IMG/VR virus record: IMGVR_UViG_2718217869_000004
Direction: 5' to 3' (one strand)
DNA length: 43,551 nucleotides
Origin: a virus
Taxonomy: Duplodnaviria; Heunggongvirae; Uroviricota; Caudoviricetes
Part shown: piece after piece, positions 460 through 31,570 of the stretch
Layout of the letters: each line of letters starts with the position of its first letter
How positions within the stretch are numbered: position 1 is the stretch's first letter
Program-made: the position numbers and the translations under genes
Notes under the pieces: generated by a model
The model's database searches: none
What the model was told of the DNA's origin: nothing
The model's input: only the letters and a program-made list of their open reading frames with translations

Positions 460-650
460 TGGGACCCCCTTTTGATTTCTTGTTTGACACTTGCAGTTGC
501 CAGACCGCAAGGTGTTTTAACAAATCAAAAGGGGTTTTAATAACTGGCTCAAAGCTGAAAGCTTTCCGGAACCCCCAGCCTAGCTGGGGGTTTTCTGTGC
601 ACAAAAACAACGGGCGTATAACACGCCCGTTTCAATATTTAACACATGTA
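1..650 (-). mobile_element. IS200 (IS200/IS605 family) insertion sequence; right end cut by window edge, left end with subterminal hairpins abutting the icd fragment stop
   Basis: tnpA ORF plus about 190 bp of structured non-coding left end (hairpins cccccagcctagctggggg and aacgggcgtataacacgcccgtt); exact left boundary estimated. Confidence 0.8.
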
Positions 651-1263: not shown

Positions 1264-2232
1264 ATGAATAAGAATTATAAAACGTTTAAACTTGAACTAT
1301 GGGAGAAGTTTAAGCATCAATGTGCTTACTGTGGCACTAAACTTTATGAACCATTGATGGCGGATGTTGATCGTTTTTTCCCAAAATCAAAGTATACTGA
1401 CTTCCAAGATGCTACAGACAACCTGCTCATCGCTTGTAAGGCATGTAGCATGATTAAAAAAGATCAGTTTCCTCTCGATGAAAATGGCAAACCATTACTT
1501 CTAAATCCTTTAAATGAAAGTTTTTCAGAACATATAAAACAAAATAAAAATGGATATTTAGAAGGTTTAACTGAGCGAGGACATGCGACTATAGATATAT
1601 TACAGTTGAATAGACCTTCATTAATTGAACAGCGCATTCTAGATGTTATTGATATGCAGTACTCTGATGATCGAACGCTATCTGAACGAGATGTCTATAT
1701 GACATTCCAAAATAGTATGCAGAACGCCATAAAACTAAATGATGCTCAGTTAAAAATTGATAGCACTTTACAAATACAAATGTCGTATATGCTATATGCC
1801 AATACAATAACTTCCTTGGAAACATATTTATGTGACAGATTTATTTCCCTAATTCATGGTAGCCAAACTAATTTGAGAAATTTTGTTGAAACCTTCAAAG
1901 ATTACAATACAGAAAAATTCTTACTTTCTGAATTATTTATAAGGCATGAACAAATAGAGTCTCAAGCGATAGAGTCTATGAAGAGTGTTCTTTATCATAA
2001 TCTGCCAAAAGTAAGTGGCATGTATCGAGATACCTTTGGTATTAAATTCCCTGTTTTCACAGAAGTTTATAAAAGCGTGTTAATTAGGCATGACTTAGTT
2101 CATCGAGCAGGTAAAACAAAAAATGGTAATTTTCATAAGTTAGATTCAGAGTCAGTTAAAGATGTTATCAAAAAATGCTGTGACTTGGTTGAACAACTAG
2201 AAAAAGAGCTTAAAGATTGTGCATCATTCTAG
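1264..2232 (+). CDS. HNH-like nuclease-fold protein (322 aa) with degenerate N-terminal HNH motif and unknown C-terminal domain; AT-rich cargo gene
   Basis: CAYCGTKL...VDRFFPKSKY...DNLLIACKACSMIKKD resembles a C-x2-C...(D/E)H..P.S...NL..C..C HNH finger but with Arg in place of the His and no Asn; strong AT bias versus phage core. Confidence 0.75.
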   Translation: MNKNYKTFKLELWEKFKHQCAYCGTKLYEPLMADVDRFFPKSKYTDFQDATDNLLIACKACSMIKKDQFPLDENGKPLLLNPLNESFSEHIKQNKNGYLEGLTERGHATIDILQLNRPSLIEQRILDVIDMQYSDDRTLSERDVYMTFQNSMQNAIKLNDAQLKIDSTLQIQMSYMLYANTITSLETYLCDRFISLIHGSQTNLRNFVETFKDYNTEKFLLSELFIRHEQIESQAIESMKSVLYHNLPKVSGMYRDTFGIKFPVFTEVYKSVLIRHDLVHRAGKTKNGNFHKLDSESVKDVIKKCCDLVEQLEKELKDCASF

Positions 2233-2428
2233 GTAATTGCCACCAAATCGAAGGTGATCGCGCTTGCGGTCACCAAAAGTAATAAACTATTCATTCCCAT
2301 TCGATCATCTGAACCAACACAATTTTATTTAATAAAGTTGACCTACTTCATTATTTGATACCCATCCAATGTGCGCAAGGGCTGCTTCTGGCACATGGTT
2401 ACCCTTGATGAGAAGGTAGATCACCGCC

Positions 2429-2546
2429 ATGGGGTGTCGGGGGCGGAGGTTCAAATCCTCTCGTGCTGACCAAAAATCCTCGAAGAACCAGCCTGTTACG
2501 GCTGGTTTTTTTTGCCTGTTTTCTGAACGGGGAAGCAATGGGGAAA
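2429..2546 (+). repeat. Direct repeat copy 1: tRNA-Pro-like 3' fragment (T-arm GGTTCAAATCC, acceptor 3' strand, CCA) plus downstream hairpin/T-run
   Basis: atggggtgtcgggggcggaggttcaaatcctctcgtgctgacca followed by ccagcc-tgttac-ggctgg-ttttttt; near-identical copy at 3600-3716; no 5' tRNA half upstream. Confidence 0.75.
2486..2513 (+). terminator. Rho-independent terminator-like hairpin inside direct repeat copy 1
   Basis: aaccagcc tgttac ggctggtt followed by a T8 run. Confidence 0.55.
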
Positions 2547-2735
2547 TTAGCTTACGGTTGACCCCACTGCGAAAAGCGCAGATTTTTATCAATGGACGTA
2601 CATAGGGTAGATAAGGCACAATACTGCTTCAATGTCGTCTGATGGTATTGTAATACTAATTACATCAGATGATTTAACTAGATTAGTTCTTTATAGAAAT
2701 CATTCTTGAATATTAATTGGCTGACTGAGGTTTTT

Positions 2736-3521
2736 ATGGATGAAAAATACAGAAGATTTGTTGATGAGGTTGACTTTTCAAGACAATTATTAGGCATAGG
2801 GCTCACTTCCCTAAGGAAAGCAAATTTTGCAAGTAGAGGATTGTATTTTCAAGCATTATCCGGCATCAGTTTAGGATTAGAAAGGCTTATGAAACTTTGC
2901 CTTATGCTTGATGATTATAATAAAAATGGAAAATATACATCACGCAAAAAATTAAGAGATTACGGTCATAACTTAAGCAAGTTATTCAACCTAGTCATTG
3001 AGAGAGTTGATTCTCCCTCTGGCTTAAATGAAATTCACTACAGAGTGATGGAGTTGTTAACTAATTTTGCAAATTCATCAAGATATAGTAATATTGATTT
3101 CATTACTAATGACAACGACAATGATCCCATGAAGCAATGGTATAATGAAATCGATAAGAGCATTTACGATGAAATATTAACAAAAAGACAAAAAAATATA
3201 ATTGATAAAAAATGCGAGCAATACCGAAGCTATGGTGAAACACTGCCATGCTATGTGCTTGGATATTATGATGAAGACAGAAACCATATAAACTCTGCAG
3301 GGGATTTAAATTATTTACTTAAAAGAAGTGAAATGCTTGCTGGTTATCGCACTTTATTAGTTATTCATATCATAGAATGCATCTATAACATATTAGACTC
3401 AATGACAGTTCAAGCAAAAGATAATCACTTCCACCATCTTGAATTAGGTCGTTTTTTTGCAACCATCATTTATGGCTCTGATAGAGACAAAATCAATAGA
3501 AAAAATTTTATCCGTATGTGA
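2736..3521 (+). CDS. Hypothetical protein (about 261 aa), AT-rich, unrecognised family; candidate accessory/defence gene
   Basis: Long ORF with GAGG RBS 6 nt upstream of ATG at 2736; sits exactly between the two tRNA-fragment direct repeats. Confidence 0.7.
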   Translation: MDEKYRRFVDEVDFSRQLLGIGLTSLRKANFASRGLYFQALSGISLGLERLMKLCLMLDDYNKNGKYTSRKKLRDYGHNLSKLFNLVIERVDSPSGLNEIHYRVMELLTNFANSSRYSNIDFITNDNDNDPMKQWYNEIDKSIYDEILTKRQKNIIDKKCEQYRSYGETLPCYVLGYYDEDRNHINSAGDLNYLLKRSEMLAGYRTLLVIHIIECIYNILDSMTVQAKDNHFHHLELGRFFATIIYGSDRDKINRKNFIRM

Positions 3522-4111: not shown

Positions 4112-5450
4112 CATAAGCGCTAACTTAAGGGTTGTGGTATTACGCCTGATATGATTTAACGTGCCGATGAATTACTCTCACGATAACTGGTCAGCAATTC
4201 TGGCCCATATTGGTAAGCCCGAAGAACTGGATACTTCGGCACGTAATGCCGGGGCTCTAACCCGCCGCCGCGAAATTCGTGATGCTGCAACTCTGCTACG
4301 TCTGGGGCTGGCTTACGGCCCCGGGGGGATGTCATTACGTGAAGTCACTGCATGGGCTCAGCTCCATGACGTTGCAACATTATCTGACGTGGCTCTCCTG
4401 AAGCGGCTGCGGAATGCCGCCGACTGGTTTGGCATACTTGCCGCACAAACACTTGCTGTACGCGCCGCAGTTACGGGTTGTACAAGCGGAAAGAGATTGC
4501 GTCTTGTCGATGGAACAGCAATCAGTGCGCCCGGGGGCGGCAGCGCTGAATGGCGACTACATATGGGATATGATCCTCATACCTGTCAGTTCACTGATTT
4601 TGAGCTAACCGACAGCAGAGACGCTGAACGGCTGGACCGATTTGCGCAAACGGCAGACGAGATACGCATTGCTGACCGGGGATTCGGTTCGCGTCCCGAA
4701 TGTATCCGCTCACTTGCTTTTGGAGAAGCTGATTATATCGTCCGGGTTCACTGGCGAGGATTGCGCTGGTTAACTGCAGAAGGAATGCGCTTTGACATGA
4801 TGGGTTTTCTGCGCGGGCTGGATTGCGGTAAGAACGGTGAAACCACTGTAATGATAGGCAATTCAGGTAATAAAAAAGCCGGAGCTCCCTTTCCGGCACG
4901 TCTCATTGCCGTATCACTTCCTCCCGAAAAAGCATTAATCAGTAAAACCCGACTGCTCAGCGAGAATCGTCGAAAAGGACGAGTAGTTCAGGCGGAAACG
5001 CTGGAAGCAGCGGGCCATGTGCTATTGCTAACATCATTACCGGAAGATGAATATTCAGCAGAGCAAGTGGCTGATTGTTACCGTCTGCGATGGCAAATTG
5101 AACTGGCTTTTAAGCGGCTCAAAAGTTTGCTGCACCTGGATGCTTTGCGTGCAAAGGAACCTGAACTCGCGAAAGCGTGGATATTTGCTAATCTACTCGC
5201 CGCATTTTTAATTGACGACATAATCCAGCCATCGCTGGATTTCCCCCCCAGAAGTGCCGGATCCGAAAAGAAGAACTAACTCGTTGTGGAGAATAACAAA
5301 AATGGTCATCTGGAGCTTACAGGTGGCCATTCGTGGGACAGTATCCCTGACAGCCTACAAAACGCAATTGAAGAACGCGAGGCATCGTCTTAACGAGGCA
5401 CCGAGGCGTCGCATTCTTCAGATGGTTCAACCCTTAAGTTAGCGCTTATG
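4112..5450 (+). mobile_element. IS186 (IS4 family), 1339 bp, with 23-bp terminal inverted repeats and 10-bp target duplication
   Basis: Ends CATAAGCGCTAACTTAAGGGTTG ... CAACCCTTAAGTTAGCGCTTATG; flanking direct repeat GGATACGCCC at 4102-4111 and 5451-5460. Confidence 0.9.
4167..5279 (+). CDS. IS186 transposase (370 aa)
   Basis: Translation MNYSHDNWSAILAHIGKPEELDTSARNAGAL... matches the IS186 transposase; lies between the IRs. Confidence 0.9.
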   Translation: MNYSHDNWSAILAHIGKPEELDTSARNAGALTRRREIRDAATLLRLGLAYGPGGMSLREVTAWAQLHDVATLSDVALLKRLRNAADWFGILAAQTLAVRAAVTGCTSGKRLRLVDGTAISAPGGGSAEWRLHMGYDPHTCQFTDFELTDSRDAERLDRFAQTADEIRIADRGFGSRPECIRSLAFGEADYIVRVHWRGLRWLTAEGMRFDMMGFLRGLDCGKNGETTVMIGNSGNKKAGAPFPARLIAVSLPPEKALISKTRLLSENRRKGRVVQAETLEAAGHVLLLTSLPEDEYSAEQVADCYRLRWQIELAFKRLKSLLHLDALRAKEPELAKAWIFANLLAAFLIDDIIQPSLDFPPRSAGSEKKN

Positions 5451-7048: not shown

Positions 7049-7600
7049 TCAACGCCGCGCAGGAAATTTTTTGTATAGCGTCGACACCCCTACATCATAA
7101 ATTATAGCCACACGTTTTCTAGACTCACCTGCAGCAATCAACCTTCCAGCCTGAGCCCACTCTTCTGCGGTTAACTTTGGTCGTCTGCCGCCGATCCGAC
7201 CATCTTCGCGCGCAGCAGCTAAGCCAGCCCGTGTTCGCTTAACAATAAGCTCTCTTTCCATCTCGGCAAGCGCCCCCATGACATGAAAGAAAAAGCGCCC
7301 CATTGGTGTTGAGGTATCTATACTGTCGGTCAGGCTACGGAAGTTTACCCCTCGCTCCCTCATTTCTTCGACCAGCACGACAAGATGCCGCATGCTGCGA
7401 CCGAGGCGATCCAGCTTCCAGACAACCAGAGTGTCACCTTCCGATAATGTCCTGAGCAGTTTTTTCAATCCCGGCCTTTCGGACTTTGTACCGCTTATCT
7501 TGTCTTCAAAAATCAGCTCGCATCCTGCACAGTTCAGCGCATTACGTTGTAGATCTGTGTTCTGGTCATTTGTTGACACACGTACATAGCCAATAAGCAT
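7049..7600 (-). CDS. pin: Pin/Gin-family DNA invertase (serine recombinase)
   Basis: MLIGYVRVSTNDQNTDLQRNAL...VVWKLDRLGRSM...HTH tail; typical resolvase/invertase motifs; next to the invertible tail-fibre segment. Confidence 0.9.
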   Translation of the reverse strand: MLIGYVRVSTNDQNTDLQRNALNCAGCELIFEDKISGTKSERPGLKKLLRTLSEGDTLVVWKLDRLGRSMRHLVVLVEEMRERGVNFRSLTDSIDTSTPMGRFFFHVMGALAEMERELIVKRTRAGLAAAREDGRIGGRRPKLTAEEWAQAGRLIAAGESRKRVAIIYDVGVSTLYKKFPARR

Positions 7601-7654
7601 GGTAGATCTCCCTGACAAAAGCAGGGATGATGCCATTTGCTCGTTATTTCTGCA

Positions 7655-27240: not shown

Positions 27241-27765
27241 ATGTACTCCAATGAAGAAGCCACCGACATAGCCTCCTCCATTCATCGTGAAACTATTTTC
27301 ATCTACGCAGTCATGAATTCTTTGTAGAGTTGTGATCAATACAACTCACTAATGGAGAGGCTTGTCCAACACGTTGGACAAGTTTCCTGTTTGATTTACT
27401 GGACACTATAGAAGGACAGAATGCCTTCCTCACTCGAATAACATCAATTAAGGAGGTTCAACATGTTTCATTCCACAAATCATCAGGCTGTAATTATGGC
27501 TGCATCAGTTTGTGCCACAGACCTTTTCCGCTTCACTTTGAGCCTGATTCATTTCTACCTGACCGGCTCGCCTCTATCTTTTTAATCCCCGCTTTATCCA
27601 AATTGCATTGCCAGAATGCCGACAACAGACCGACATTCAAATCCTGACTACCTCCAATAGTCTGACCGTACACCTATATAGTTTTAATTTTCATCAATCC
27701 ATTTAACTATCGTTTAATTGTTGTCACATAGGATTCTGCCGTTTTTAACAATGCAGGATAATAAG

Positions 27766-28059
27766 ATGAAAAAAATGTTGTTTTCTGCCGCTCTGGCAAT
27801 GCTTATTACAGGATGTGCTCAACAGACGTTTACTGTTGGAAACAAACCGACAGCAGTAACACCAAAGGAAACCATCACCCATCATTTCTTCGTTTCGGGA
27901 ATTGGACAGGAGAAAACTGTTGATGCAGCCAAAATTTGTGGCGGCGCAGAAAATGTTGTTAAAACAGAAACCCAGCAAACATTCGTAAATGGATTGCTCG
28001 GTTTTATTACTTTAGGCATTTATACTCCGCTGGAAGCGCGTGTGTATTGCTCACAATAA
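27766..28059 (+). CDS. bor: Bor lipoprotein (lambda Bor-like outer-membrane lipoprotein)
   Basis: MKKMLFSAALAMLITGC lipobox, 97 aa, Bor-like sequence; opposite strand next to Rz as in lambda. Confidence 0.9.
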   Translation: MKKMLFSAALAMLITGCAQQTFTVGNKPTAVTPKETITHHFFVSGIGQEKTVDAAKICGGAENVVKTETQQTFVNGLLGFITLGIYTPLEARVYCSQ

Positions 28060-29028: not shown

Positions 29029-29364
29029 TTACTCCTTAGAGCCACTAAACTTATTACCGATTACTCGCATTGCAGCTCCACGAATGGCATCAACACCGAT
29101 CAGCCCAACGCCACCACCAATGGCAACAGAAAGCGATTTAGGCCATCCGACATACTCAAGCGCGGATGCAAAAGTCAGCGTCAGAGCACCACAGAGCAAA
29201 ATCTCGAGCGTTTTTCGCTTCCAGCCACCACCTCCGCCAAAATAGGCGATACGCAAACCAGCCATAACGATCGACATAATCACTGCCCCCAGCGGGGTGT
29301 CTCCACGCCACCAGCTCTGGAACAACTCCAGCCAGTCCGGCCAAGTATTTGGGTTATGAGGCAT
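29029..29364 (-). CDS. Putative holin
   Basis: 111-aa ORF with hydrophobic helices immediately upstream of endolysin. Confidence 0.6.
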   Translation of the reverse strand: MPHNPNTWPDWLELFQSWWRGDTPLGAVIMSIVMAGLRIAYFGGGGGWKRKTLEILLCGALTLTFASALEYVGWPKSLSVAIGGGVGLIGVDAIRGAAMRVIGNKFSGSKE

Positions 29365-29410
29365 TTGTAGTTATCTCTCACCTGCGATTATTTGCGGGTG
29401 CTGTGTTGGA

Positions 29411-29436
29411 AATAAAAAGGCCACCCGAAGGCAGCC
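29411..29436 (-). terminator. Rho-independent terminator after the ATPase moron
   Basis: Minus strand GGCTGCC-TTCG-GGTGGCC hairpin followed by TTTTTATTT. Confidence 0.6.
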
Positions 29437-29460
29437 TGATTTAATTATTCACATTAATCG

Positions 29461-30852
29461 TCACTTAATAGGATTTGGTTTTATGTCGTCAAGCCAGTCG
29501 TTATCACCTCTTAGCTTGGCTACTCGTCCTTCAACATTAGTTAATGGTTTATAAGCAGAGTATTTGCCTATAGCCCTAGCAGAATGCTCTCCAGCAACAC
29601 GATAATTTTGGAAGTCCAACTCAAGTCCATGCTGCTCCGCTCTCATTCGAATATAACCACGAAGCATGTTTTCTCTAAATCGAAACCAAGATGGACGATT
29701 CCCTAAAGCAGGGATGATGATGCATCCAAATGTCGGTTTCTTCAATGCGTTGAACTTTCGCTCAAACGTGGATTTATCTAAAGGTGTTACATCAAGCGAT
29801 TTGCAAATTTTAACGTACGATTCTGATATATGAGTCTTATGTCTGGTCAAATCAGCCATATCGGACATAGCCCAAAGAATATGCTTATATGACTCATCAC
29901 GTCCCTCTGTTGCATCCGTGTAACTTTGCCTTAAAGTTTCCGAGACTGAATCAATTGCATCATTTAACCCTTTAATGAAAAGGTTGTAATCAACAGAGCT
30001 ATATTCACGTATTGAGCTTTGACATGTTAAAAGGATTTTTTCACAAATAAGATGAATGTAGTTCGGGAACCCGTCACTAAGACCCGCAATTTTATAGCGG
30101 ACAGAATCATCGACAGTCAGGCCAAACTCATCGAAAGCATTATCAATTATTTGAAAACGACCATTCCATGGTAAACTATCGAGATGTACCTGATGTATTT
30201 GTCGCTCACTTGATTTATGCCCTCCGATTAAAGTAACGAGAGAATCACCAATCCCCGTAAAAATTAATTTTACTTCACACGCCTGATCACCAAGTTGCTT
30301 AATGAGTGATCCAAACTTTTGTCGTTCTTCATCAGAGTCAATTTGGTCAAACTCATCGATAACTATATAAGGAATCTTTGAGTGAACTTTAGTTAAAAAT
30401 TGCAACGCCCGAACGGCTGCAGAAACTGAGTCAATTTTCAGTTCTGGATAATTATATTTTTGATTTTGACCAGCATTGATACCACCAATTCCAGCCACAT
30501 TTAAGCCAAAGCTCCATCCCTGTGTATCGATTTTCTTATCCTGAGGTGTGCCTCGCAAAATAATGTCATTCATGACACTTGAAAAAGTGGATTCTTTCTC
30601 GCAGCCAACCAAAATAGGTTCAGCATCTTCCTGCAGCTTAAAAGCAACAGTTTGCGCTAAGGATGTCTTTCCTACTCCGCGATCACCATAAATGAAAGCA
30701 TGCCGACCTGTAGCATAAAGCGCCAATTCGAGATCGGTTACATGTTTTTCACGTCCAAATAACAGTTCCATAGAAACAACTGGACCCGTTGGTCGCAAAA
30801 CTTTATGCAGTTTATGCATAAAGTCTCGCAAAGAAAGACCTCCACAGAGCAT
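29461..30852 (-). CDS. P-loop NTPase (AAA+-like ATPase, 463 aa) moron; AT-rich
   Basis: Walker A GDRGVGKTS and Walker B YIVIDEFD; codon usage and AT content differ from flanking phage genes; own terminator downstream. Confidence 0.8.
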   Translation of the reverse strand: MLCGGLSLRDFMHKLHKVLRPTGPVVSMELLFGREKHVTDLELALYATGRHAFIYGDRGVGKTSLAQTVAFKLQEDAEPILVGCEKESTFSSVMNDIILRGTPQDKKIDTQGWSFGLNVAGIGGINAGQNQKYNYPELKIDSVSAAVRALQFLTKVHSKIPYIVIDEFDQIDSDEERQKFGSLIKQLGDQACEVKLIFTGIGDSLVTLIGGHKSSERQIHQVHLDSLPWNGRFQIIDNAFDEFGLTVDDSVRYKIAGLSDGFPNYIHLICEKILLTCQSSIREYSSVDYNLFIKGLNDAIDSVSETLRQSYTDATEGRDESYKHILWAMSDMADLTRHKTHISESYVKICKSLDVTPLDKSTFERKFNALKKPTFGCIIIPALGNRPSWFRFRENMLRGYIRMRAEQHGLELDFQNYRVAGEHSARAIGKYSAYKPLTNVEGRVAKLRGDNDWLDDIKPNPIK

Positions 30853-30913
30853 TTTTATTCTCCTGCATTTTTTTCGAAAACTATAACATCATTCTTTTTG
30901 GCAAGCCTTTCCT

Positions 30914-30940
30914 AAACGCAAAAACCCGCACAATGGCGGG
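30914..30940 (-). terminator. Rho-independent terminator-like hairpin downstream of the Q-like gene
   Basis: Minus strand CCCGC-cattgt-GCGGG followed by TTTTTGCGTTT. Confidence 0.5.
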
Positions 30941-30991
30941 TTCTTACTATTATGTTGCTCAGTTCGCTTTTCGTCCCGAGCTTATCACAAT

Positions 30992-31570
30992 TCAAGCACT
31001 TTCTTGCTCACTTTGCAATTTAAATCTGTCGCTATTTGTGCCAAACGCATCACATAGTGGAGCGTACAGGAGCGATTCGGCCAAACTTATCCATGTGTCA
31101 ACTCGGCGGCGACAGGTAATGAGCGCCCAGTCAGGATGTTTAATATGAAGCTCATTGGCCATTTGCAACTTGCTCTTACGCAGACGATACCGGCCAACAA
31201 TCACACCGTATAGAGAACGGTAATCATTATTCATCAGCACCGAGGCGATCACACCGTCAATCTTCAGGCCTTCATCGTCCGAGCAAAACGCCAGACTACT
31301 TTTGTTTTTACTGTTGAGTATTTCGCGCAAATAAGCTTCGAGCTCTGGTTTCGTAATGCCTGACTTTTTCATACGGCGCAGCGCATCGTTGATTGCAGTT
31401 TTGGTAATTTTGCTGGATACAAGCAGTTGGTTAAACATGTTACCGCTAGTCCCTCCACTGATATAAGACCAACGCCCCCACATGCGGAGCTTCCCCTGAA
31501 CCCAGATACTTTCCAGAGTACGAAGACGAACCATTTCACCCGTTTTGCCAATTTCAGAAGGATTAATCAT
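30992..31570 (-). CDS. Putative late-gene antiterminator (Q-like)
   Basis: 192-aa ORF upstream of the lysis cassette and downstream of RusA/DUF968; family assignment unverified. Confidence 0.45.
   Translation of the reverse strand: MINPSEIGKTGEMVRLRTLESIWVQGKLRMWGRWSYISGGTSGNMFNQLLVSSKITKTAINDALRRMKKSGITKPELEAYLREILNSKNKSSLAFCSDDEGLKIDGVIASVLMNNDYRSLYGVIVGRYRLRKSKLQMANELHIKHPDWALITCRRRVDTWISLAESLLYAPLCDAFGTNSDRFKLQSEQESA

Follow-up and report, generated by a model that had tools for sequence, protein, structure and literature searches.

The question raised by this locus is what a P-loop ATPase gene is doing between the antiterminator and lysis genes of a prophage, and whether it serves there as a defence gene. 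The window, meaning the whole stretch of DNA analysed (43,551 nucleotides (nt); IMG/VR record IMGVR_UViG_2718217869_000004), is identical to an SfV/e14-like prophage next to icd in Escherichia coli Ecol_545. An intact open reading frame (ORF) with an ATG start (29461..30852, minus strand) encodes a P-loop ATPase of 463 amino acids (aa) and lies between a Q-like antiterminator gene (upstream) and a lambda-type holin gene (downstream). The protein is identical to E. coli WP_021562676.1, annotated merely as 'ATP-binding protein', and the copy in Ecol_545 bears that annotation only. A preliminary description of the window had reported a Walker A/B NTPase (GDRGVGKTS, IVIDEFD) at this place, and the ORF, its motifs and its neighbours were confirmed. 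The gene qualifies as a true single-gene moron and as a credible defence candidate of unusually minimal architecture; that it acts as a single-gene anti-phage protein conferring superinfection immunity is given an even chance.

The features of the locus, in the order of transcription, are as follows.

30992..31570, minus strand: Q-like antiterminator gene (DUF1133), from Pfam and PHROG.
30914..30947, minus strand: upstream intrinsic terminator of the Q module (tR'-like), from folding and alignment.
30880..30888, minus strand: candidate extended -10 promoter TGtTATAGT, with an implied 5' untranslated region of ~21 nt, read by eye.
30860..30864, minus strand: Shine-Dalgarno sequence AGGAG, 7 nt 5' of the ATG, read from the sequence.
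29461..30852, minus strand: coding sequence of the ATPase, from the ORF call, Pfam, PHROG and relatives.
29409..29437, minus strand: downstream intrinsic terminator directly before the holin gene, from folding and alignment with SfV.
29029..29364, minus strand: lambda-family holin gene, first gene of the lysis cassette, from Pfam and PHROG.

For the E. coli prophage that carries it, an SfV/e14-like element which has integrated at icd, the ATPase gene is a moron, a piece of optional cargo. The gene shows the marks of a lambdoid moron, being inserted between backbone genes, missing from otherwise similar phages and deviant in composition. Its GC content was 0.37-0.42 against 0.47-0.57 in the flanks, in agreement with the earlier remark that the gene is AT-rich. 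The upstream gene matched DUF1133 (5e-89), Phage_antitermQ (34.1 bits, cut-off 26) and PHROG 753 ('Q-like'), and the ORF list of the window held no further credible ORF between Q and holin. Among prophages sharing the Q module, GF60 and 2017C-4173W12 have no gene in the slot, and ARL09/232 holds a 126-aa ORF without known function. Among prophages sharing the holin, the slot is empty in A1_136, holds a DNA methyltransferase in CT30 and mEp460, and holds a KAP NTPase in M7424 (L099 4134-5465; PADLOC PDC-S20, 1e-175; PifA-like, 4.5e-18). In SfV orf47 and a DNA methyltransferase lie between the same two kinds of terminator. In CFSAN061772 (L101 4617-5933) DarT-NADAR is placed just upstream of the same holin and is flanked by integrase genes, with no Q annotated in the fetched stretch. 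The proposal of a moron in the Q-to-lysis slot therefore stands, since in siblings with the same Q or holin the slot holds either nothing or a different cargo. The KAP NTPase, DarT-NADAR and the SfV/mEp460 methyltransferase occupy the same position as the ATPase but are not homologous to it, and the analogy is one of position only. The other slot cargos are one- or two-gene accessory units, several of them with known or proposed anti-phage roles, and the Q-holin slot of SfV/e14-like prophages behaves as a defence-cargo hotspot.

Two terminators bracketing the gene had been taken in the preliminary description as the mark of an autonomous unit. Both hairpins are real. The upstream one (~30947-30918, followed by a U-tract) folded at -18.6 kcal/mol (z = -3.56) and the downstream one (29437-29418, followed by UUUUUAUUU) at -13.1 kcal/mol (z = -2.82); for either, 0 of 200 shuffles folded as well as the real hairpin. 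They are not the gene's own, however. When relatives with the same Q were aligned, the ~75 nt following the Q stop, the hairpin and the T-tract were all found to be conserved, and homology ended right after the T-tract. Since the upstream terminator is kept in cargo-free relatives, it is a tR'-like late-operon terminator of the Q module and not part of the cargo. Homology to SfV begins in the 3' arm of the downstream hairpin, so that this arm and the T-tract are shared, and continues into the holin gene; the downstream terminator is therefore a backbone or recombination-junction element. From these alignments the two terminators are judged to be exchange points of the cargo slot and not insulation brought by the ATPase gene, and the claim of autonomy is left unsupported, both being shared with the backbone.

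The stretch of ~75 nt from the Q stop to the terminator (within window 30948-31044, minus strand) was near-identical in five phages with differing downstream cargo, and a promoter-like sequence, TTGGCA-16-TAAATT, is present at 31044..31017 in the 3' end of Q. The layout of 30948-31044 suggests a late promoter, a Q-utilisation site and a short leader RNA belonging to a DUF1133-type Q; the transcript would be ~95 nt long and end at the terminator.

Expression of the ATPase independent of the late operon would depend on the candidate extended -10 listed above, which the preliminary description did not mention, and not on the terminators. This site (30888-30880), read by eye, was the only candidate found for a promoter active in the lysogen, and it is kept as TGgTATAGT in the orthologous locus of Enterobacter sp. 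kpr-6. A scan of the whole window with Rfam gave no match in the ATPase region. Lying past the Q-linked terminator but before the holin, the gene would, by lambdoid late-operon logic, have to be transcribed by Q-modified polymerase en route to the lysis genes.

The Walker A motif of the protein spans residues 56-64 (30687-30661) and the Walker B motif residues 163-169 (30366-30346). Pfam AAA_16 was matched at E=8.3e-10 (39.8 bits, cut-off 32.6) and AAA_22 at E=6.6e-07, and PHROG 6841 (function unknown) aligned with the ATPase end to end (6e-103). The Walker motifs are not due to chance, since these profiles match, as do 665 full-length relatives recovered in a search of 5.8 billion sequences. 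An AlphaFold2 model was built from 44 relatives (mean predicted local distance difference test score (pLDDT) 83.8). It comprised an AAA+ domain, a helical lid, a winged helix and a low-confidence tail, which are placed in the window as follows.

30178..30765, minus strand: AAA+ nucleotide-binding domain, residues ~30-225, from invariant columns, the model and Pfam.
30433..30552, minus strand: hypervariable, predicted-disordered loop, residues ~101-140, from pLDDT <50 at 106-134 and the lowest conservation.
29908..30168, minus strand: helical lid, residues ~229-315, with invariant G261 and P263 (GxP, 'SDGFPNY'), from conservation and the model.
29632..29895, minus strand: winged helix, residues ~320-407, from conservation and the model.
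29461..29631, minus strand: low-confidence C-terminal tail, residues 408-463, from the model and conservation.

What had been called a 'large unrecognised C-terminal region' is an AAA+ lid with a GxP motif followed by a winged helix. The AAA+ domain holds a GRE motif (R34), the two Walker motifs and a sensor-1 region (FTG, 198-200), together with conserved H212, S214 and R217, the last a box VII-like arginine. When the 44 relatives were aligned, K62, D166, E167, R217, G261 and P263 were invariant; judged by the first four of these, the nucleotide switch is catalytically intact. The hypervariable loop lies between helix 2 and the helix preceding Walker B, and thereby occupies the position of the initiator-specific motif of ORC/DnaA-type AAA+ proteins. 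In the winged helix the wing is basic and conserved (R386, W389, E394, R398, G399 and R402), and the helix at 361-380 is the second most variable stretch of the protein. The tail motif Y-[KRQ]-P-L-T-x-[VI]-E was conserved in the gammaproteobacterial subfamily only. Among relatives listed at 72-87% identity, substitution density was 0.54 in residues 101-140, 0.35 in 361-380 and ~0.05-0.2 elsewhere. Variability so focused on one loop and one winged-helix helix would be the pattern expected of a specificity surface.

The best Foldseek matches were Cdc6/Orc1, RFC and plant NLR/Apaf-1/CED-4. At E<=1e-5 AAA_16 was matched by 43 of the 44 relatives, ATPase_2 by 31 and nSTAND1 by 30. A sequence search of PDB chains returned ClpA and ArsA at the P-loop level alone (E>0.3), and the BFVD viral fold library gave generic clamp-loader/AAA+ matches alone (TM-score about 0.3-0.4). 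The whole protein is accordingly modelled as a single bare nucleotide-switch module at the border of ORC/Cdc6 and STAND proteins, without effector or repeat sensor.

Relatives were drawn from the search of 5.8 billion sequences (120 best inspected) and from one of 1.84 billion representatives (150 best of 972 strong matches), the latter giving at least 972 clusters at 50% identity (E<=1e-30). The ~270 relatives so listed were all ~410-470 aa long or fragments, save one of 576 aa which had no extra Pfam domain, and a fused effector domain was present in none of them. The ATPase gene was found in 56 of 5426 complete E. coli genomes, all copies being at least 99% identical, intact and in the Q-holin slot; several of the strain names in the match list are O25b:H4-ST131. 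In a scan of one genome per species, at least 251 species carried a relative. The 80 loci kept came from alpha-, beta- and gammaproteobacteria, Planctomycetota, Bacteroidota and one metagenome-assembled actinomycete genome. Among phages a relative was present in 3 of 50,697 records (two phages). Gp30 of mycobacteriophage Kevin1 is a full-length member of the family (hhalign probability 99.9%, E 1.5e-35). Its gene belongs to the central variable region of cluster N, where it has the lysis genes on one side and, on the other, the integrase and repressor genes, whose orientation it shares. According to the Kevin1 genome announcement this region is linked with prophage-mediated defence; gene 30 is described there as an orpham that is untested (PMC6544188). 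A further full-length relative (44% identical), WP_002211751.1, is encoded on plasmid pMT1 of Yersinia pestis CO92 (L102 7001-8392) and was found on 63 Yersinia plasmid records, all those listed being Y. pestis.

In these settings the gene travels alone on prophages, plasmids and islands, often amid defence genes. ORFs were called in 86 loci and all neighbours were clustered all-vs-all, and no partner gene was conserved across the 86. The commonest neighbour, a serine recombinase, was present in 14 of them at varying positions and no cluster occurred in more; tyrosine integrases followed in 7 and 6 loci and a cI-like repressor in 5. With no conserved partner and no fused effector, the earlier reading of a single-gene unit was upheld. 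Neighbours of at least 250 aa within 6 kb were compared with PADLOC (E<=1e-10) in three batches covering 70 loci. The first batch yielded KwaB, Ppl (2), a type IIG restriction-modification enzyme, NsnA, DrmMI, Avs4, PD-T4-2_A and GajA, with McrBC found by Pfam. The second yielded ThsA with ThsB, a CBASS SAVED-HNH effector, PtuA, SoFic, AriA (2) and PDC-S06, and the third retron reverse transcriptases (2), SspF, TRIP13, a type IV restriction enzyme, PDC-S35 and PDC-S68. Kiwa, Gabija, Thoeris, CBASS, Septu, PARIS, retrons, Ssp and restriction are thus represented near relatives. About one third or more of the loci seem to lie near a known defence protein, an estimate from aggregate counts without a background control. 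The PADLOC models mad3 (MADS) and mad8 matched 5 and 4 neighbours, respectively (sets A3 and A5; loci L014-L060), matches in which true MADS and a generic domain are not distinguished.

Individual loci show the range of these contexts. A Pseudomonas relative adjoins GajA and GajB (Gabija) in an integrase island, and a Pectobacterium relative lies in an integrative element beside HxsD and radical-SAM genes. In Edwardsiella the relative is in a prophage near cI, with HipA_2 and DUF3037, and in Vibrio and Photobacterium relatives are in prophages beside DUF968, upstream of the lysis genes; in these three genera, as in Enterobacter, the relatives occupy accessory slots of temperate phages. On pMT1 RelE/Phd, a serine recombinase, a DNA methylase and ArdA are nearby. 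The closest locus fetched, that of Enterobacter sp. kpr-6 (L014; 92% identity in the best aligned segment), has its copy between a DUF1133 gene and a putative lysis cassette, the latter recognised from the ORF layout alone. In the same prophage (L014 3498-6721) KwaB (PADLOC, 2e-148) and a DpnII/MboI-like nuclease are encoded a few kb upstream, and a 201-aa ORF overlaps the end of KwaB; this prophage appears to stack several defence cargos.

The ATPase was then set against the systems it resembles. The archaeal ATPases of PF01637 (ATPase_2; PABY2304, PDB 2qen; SSO1545, PDB 2fna) are 15-17% identical to it, and it reached 24.7 bits with the PF01637 profile, under the cut-off of 33.2. We know of no established function for PABY2304 or SSO1545, and the match therefore gives a fold, not a mechanism. 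ORC1/Cdc6 proteins (1fnn, 2qby and 7tjh among the top Foldseek matches) have the same order of AAA+ domain, lid and C-terminal winged helix, a box VII-like SxxR followed by a hydrophobic strand, and a winged helix with a conserved basic wing. The ATPase differs from them in carrying a GxP motif in place of the sensor-2 arginine and in being accessory cargo in 1% of E. coli genomes instead of an origin-linked essential gene; TIGR02928 reached 35.6 bits against a cut-off of 181.3, with the N-terminal 90 residues alone aligned, and NF001625 reached 15.6 against 501.

With STAND proteins (nSTAND1, Avs, bNACHT, NLR-like) the ATPase shares the NOD core (nucleotide-binding domain, helical domain and winged helix, with GxP), and its family is likewise found in defence islands and prophage cargo slots. 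The nSTAND1 profile gave 22.4 bits for the ATPase itself, under its cut-off of 27.1, against the 30 of 44 relatives that matched. The tripartite STAND build is not seen, however; no listed relative has an N-terminal effector or a C-terminal TPR, WD40 or other sensor, and at 463 aa the ATPase has a disordered tail alone after the winged helix. A survey of STAND proteins, in the part of its text available, centres on STANDs with large sensors and clusters sensors of at least 400 aa (PMC12803255), a kind of domain which the ATPase does not have. MuB, TnsC and TniB have no C-terminal winged helix. No transposase adjoins the ATPase, and the TniB profile gave 15.4 bits against a cut-off of 22.4. A TniB/MuB-like role was rejected, there being no transposase neighbour or transposase cluster among the conserved neighbours of the 86 loci. 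BREX BrxC, MADS mad8 and IetA work in conserved operons, whereas the ATPase gene has no conserved neighbours, and their matches span only part of the nucleotide-binding domain.

A comparison with defence NTPases by hidden Markov models and structure, as proposed in the preliminary description, found NLR/Apaf-1/CED-4 among the fold matches and sequence matches of ~30 residues at the P-loop only (mad8 at 2e-4, PDC-S01, IetA, DS41_1 at 15.8 vs 370, and IteA). A literature search by accession found WP_021562676 in no paper. The family was not mentioned, by term search, in the available parts of DefensePredictor, the STAND survey (PMC12803255), the serine-recombinase marker paper and Kaur et al. 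2020, although an earlier test of a relative is possible. Nor was it mentioned, again by term search, in the available part of a domain-centric screen, which excludes single-gene systems.

The association with known defence genes makes a role in defence plausible. For the way in which the ATPase would act as an immune protein our confidence is considerably less. We infer its promoter, ligand, oligomerisation and mode of inhibition as follows. In the lysogen its own extended -10 promoter would sustain low-level production of the ATPase; upon induction, additional transcription would come from the late promoter by Q-antiterminated read-through, because of the position of the gene between the Q-linked terminator and the holin. 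The protein would rest as a nucleotide-bound monomer. A ligand of the infecting phage, either a DNA structure or a protein, would be bound through the hypervariable loop and the variable winged-helix surface, and ATP-dependent oligomerisation on DNA or on a target protein would follow. The assembly would then block replication or packaging of phage DNA by occupancy or sequestration and not as an enzymatic toxin, in a manner comparable to ORC, MuB and TnsC. The strongest form of this proposal is that a minimal NOD module of the ORC/Cdc6 kind, lacking any effector, suffices as a complete immune system on its own, one that recognises a phage genome or replication intermediate and imposes an ATP-dependent, 'origin-recognition-like' blockade on the DNA, with the loop and the winged helix setting specificity. 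That form is speculative and considered improbable.

Several observations weigh against a defensive function. What points to it is association alone, countable in aggregate and without a per-locus score or background control. The antiphage models of PADLOC v2.0.0 and NCBIfam match the ATPase no further than the P-loop. It has no effector domain, and its manner of stopping a phage is therefore conjecture. A scan with the two-hexamer consensus found no promoter between the upstream terminator and the ATG, and the position of the gene inside the late operon means that it may serve the phage's own lytic cycle. On pMT1 the relative comes directly after parA/parB, and in Nitrogeniibacter aestuarii (L009 6735-9365) it starts ~30 nt past the end of rtcB, in the same orientation, with rtcR farther upstream. 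This RNA-repair context is explained by none of the readings offered.

The alternatives differ in what the switch would act upon. An accessory function of the mobile element outside defence, in which the ATPase would be an ATP-dependent DNA-binding regulator (a STAND of the MalT/AfsR type, or in the manner of MuB/TnsC/TniB) of transcription, replication, maintenance or lysogenic conversion, is possible though unlikely. Against it, no transposase is adjacent, no target operon is conserved, the TniB score falls short, and the contexts are too diverse for a single regulatory target. Immunity accounts better for the enrichment near defence genes and in prophage slots known for defence. A somewhat less likely idea is that the ATPase is half a system, a bare switch which senses infection but leaves the action to a partner encoded elsewhere, for instance another defence system, a protease or a nuclease of the host. 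The lack of an effector domain in every listed relative would fit a sensor or adaptor, as would the frequent position beside complete defence systems and the fact that STAND and AAA+ modules usually regulate something else. No neighbour is conserved in the 86 loci, however, and movement of the gene by itself among phages, plasmids and islands of distant phyla would demand a host partner that is universally conserved.

The late transcription unit, in which the gene stands downstream of a Q-linked terminator, also suits a factor of counter-defence or inter-element competition that would be expressed late under Q and shield the induced phage from the immunity of the host or a rival element. Anti-defence genes cluster with defence genes too, and ArdA and a methylase are found near the pMT1 relative. 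This reading is nonetheless regarded as very unlikely: small size and early expression are typical of known anti-defence proteins, the orientation of Kevin1 gp30 with the integrase and repressor genes suggests expression in the lysogen, and copies in chromosomal defence islands have no phage to protect. Least probable by far is a core phage ATPase of replication, recombination or packaging, for which there are weak profile similarities to the clamp loader and Sak4 PHROGs (6e-05 and 3e-03) and the fold similarity to RFC, DnaA and Cdc6. The gene is missing from sibling phages that share the Q module or the holin, replication and terminase functions are encoded elsewhere in the prophage, and relatives are rare among phage records and show no conserved synteny. 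A core role in replication or packaging was rejected, being contradicted by this pattern of presence and absence; a homologous replication or packaging ATPase with conserved synteny, which the preliminary description had named as the finding that would speak against its reading, was not encountered.

Should the single-gene anti-phage reading hold and the protein protect against phages, a widespread family would be added to the defence catalogue, including members in O25b:H4-ST131 prophages, on pMT1 and in a cluster N mycobacteriophage. It would show what a bare ORC/Cdc6-NLR NOD core does without effector or repeat sensor, and such a core bears on the evolution of STAND receptors from DNA-handling AAA+ ATPases. 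An origin-recognition-like blockade, if true, would be a mechanistic class apart from the sensor-plus-toxin STAND defences, spread over prophages, plasmids (Y. pestis pMT1) and defence islands of several phyla. The Q-holin junction, with its terminators as exchange points, offers a practical handle for finding further cargo.

Other features of the same prophage were noted. In window 1264-3521 (plus strand), where the GC content is 0.30-0.35, a 322-aa ORF (1264..2232) without a Pfam match gave PADLOC matches to PtuB-type (Septu nuclease subunit) and HNH models (best 1.1e-23). It is followed by a 271-aa ORF of no known function (2706..3521) and then by a DDE transposase (insertion sequence at 4161-5279). 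Window 1264-3521 may hold a further defence cargo; seen from the structural genes, it lies beyond the Pin-like invertase gene (7049..7636). A Bor/Iss lipoprotein gene (window 27718-28059, plus strand; PF06291, 1e-30; iss in Ecol_545) lies just past the Rz-like gene on the opposite strand and is another moron of this prophage. The Hfq-binding small RNA STnc490 was located by Rfam at window 469-592 (minus strand), with 146 bits against a gathering score of 56.

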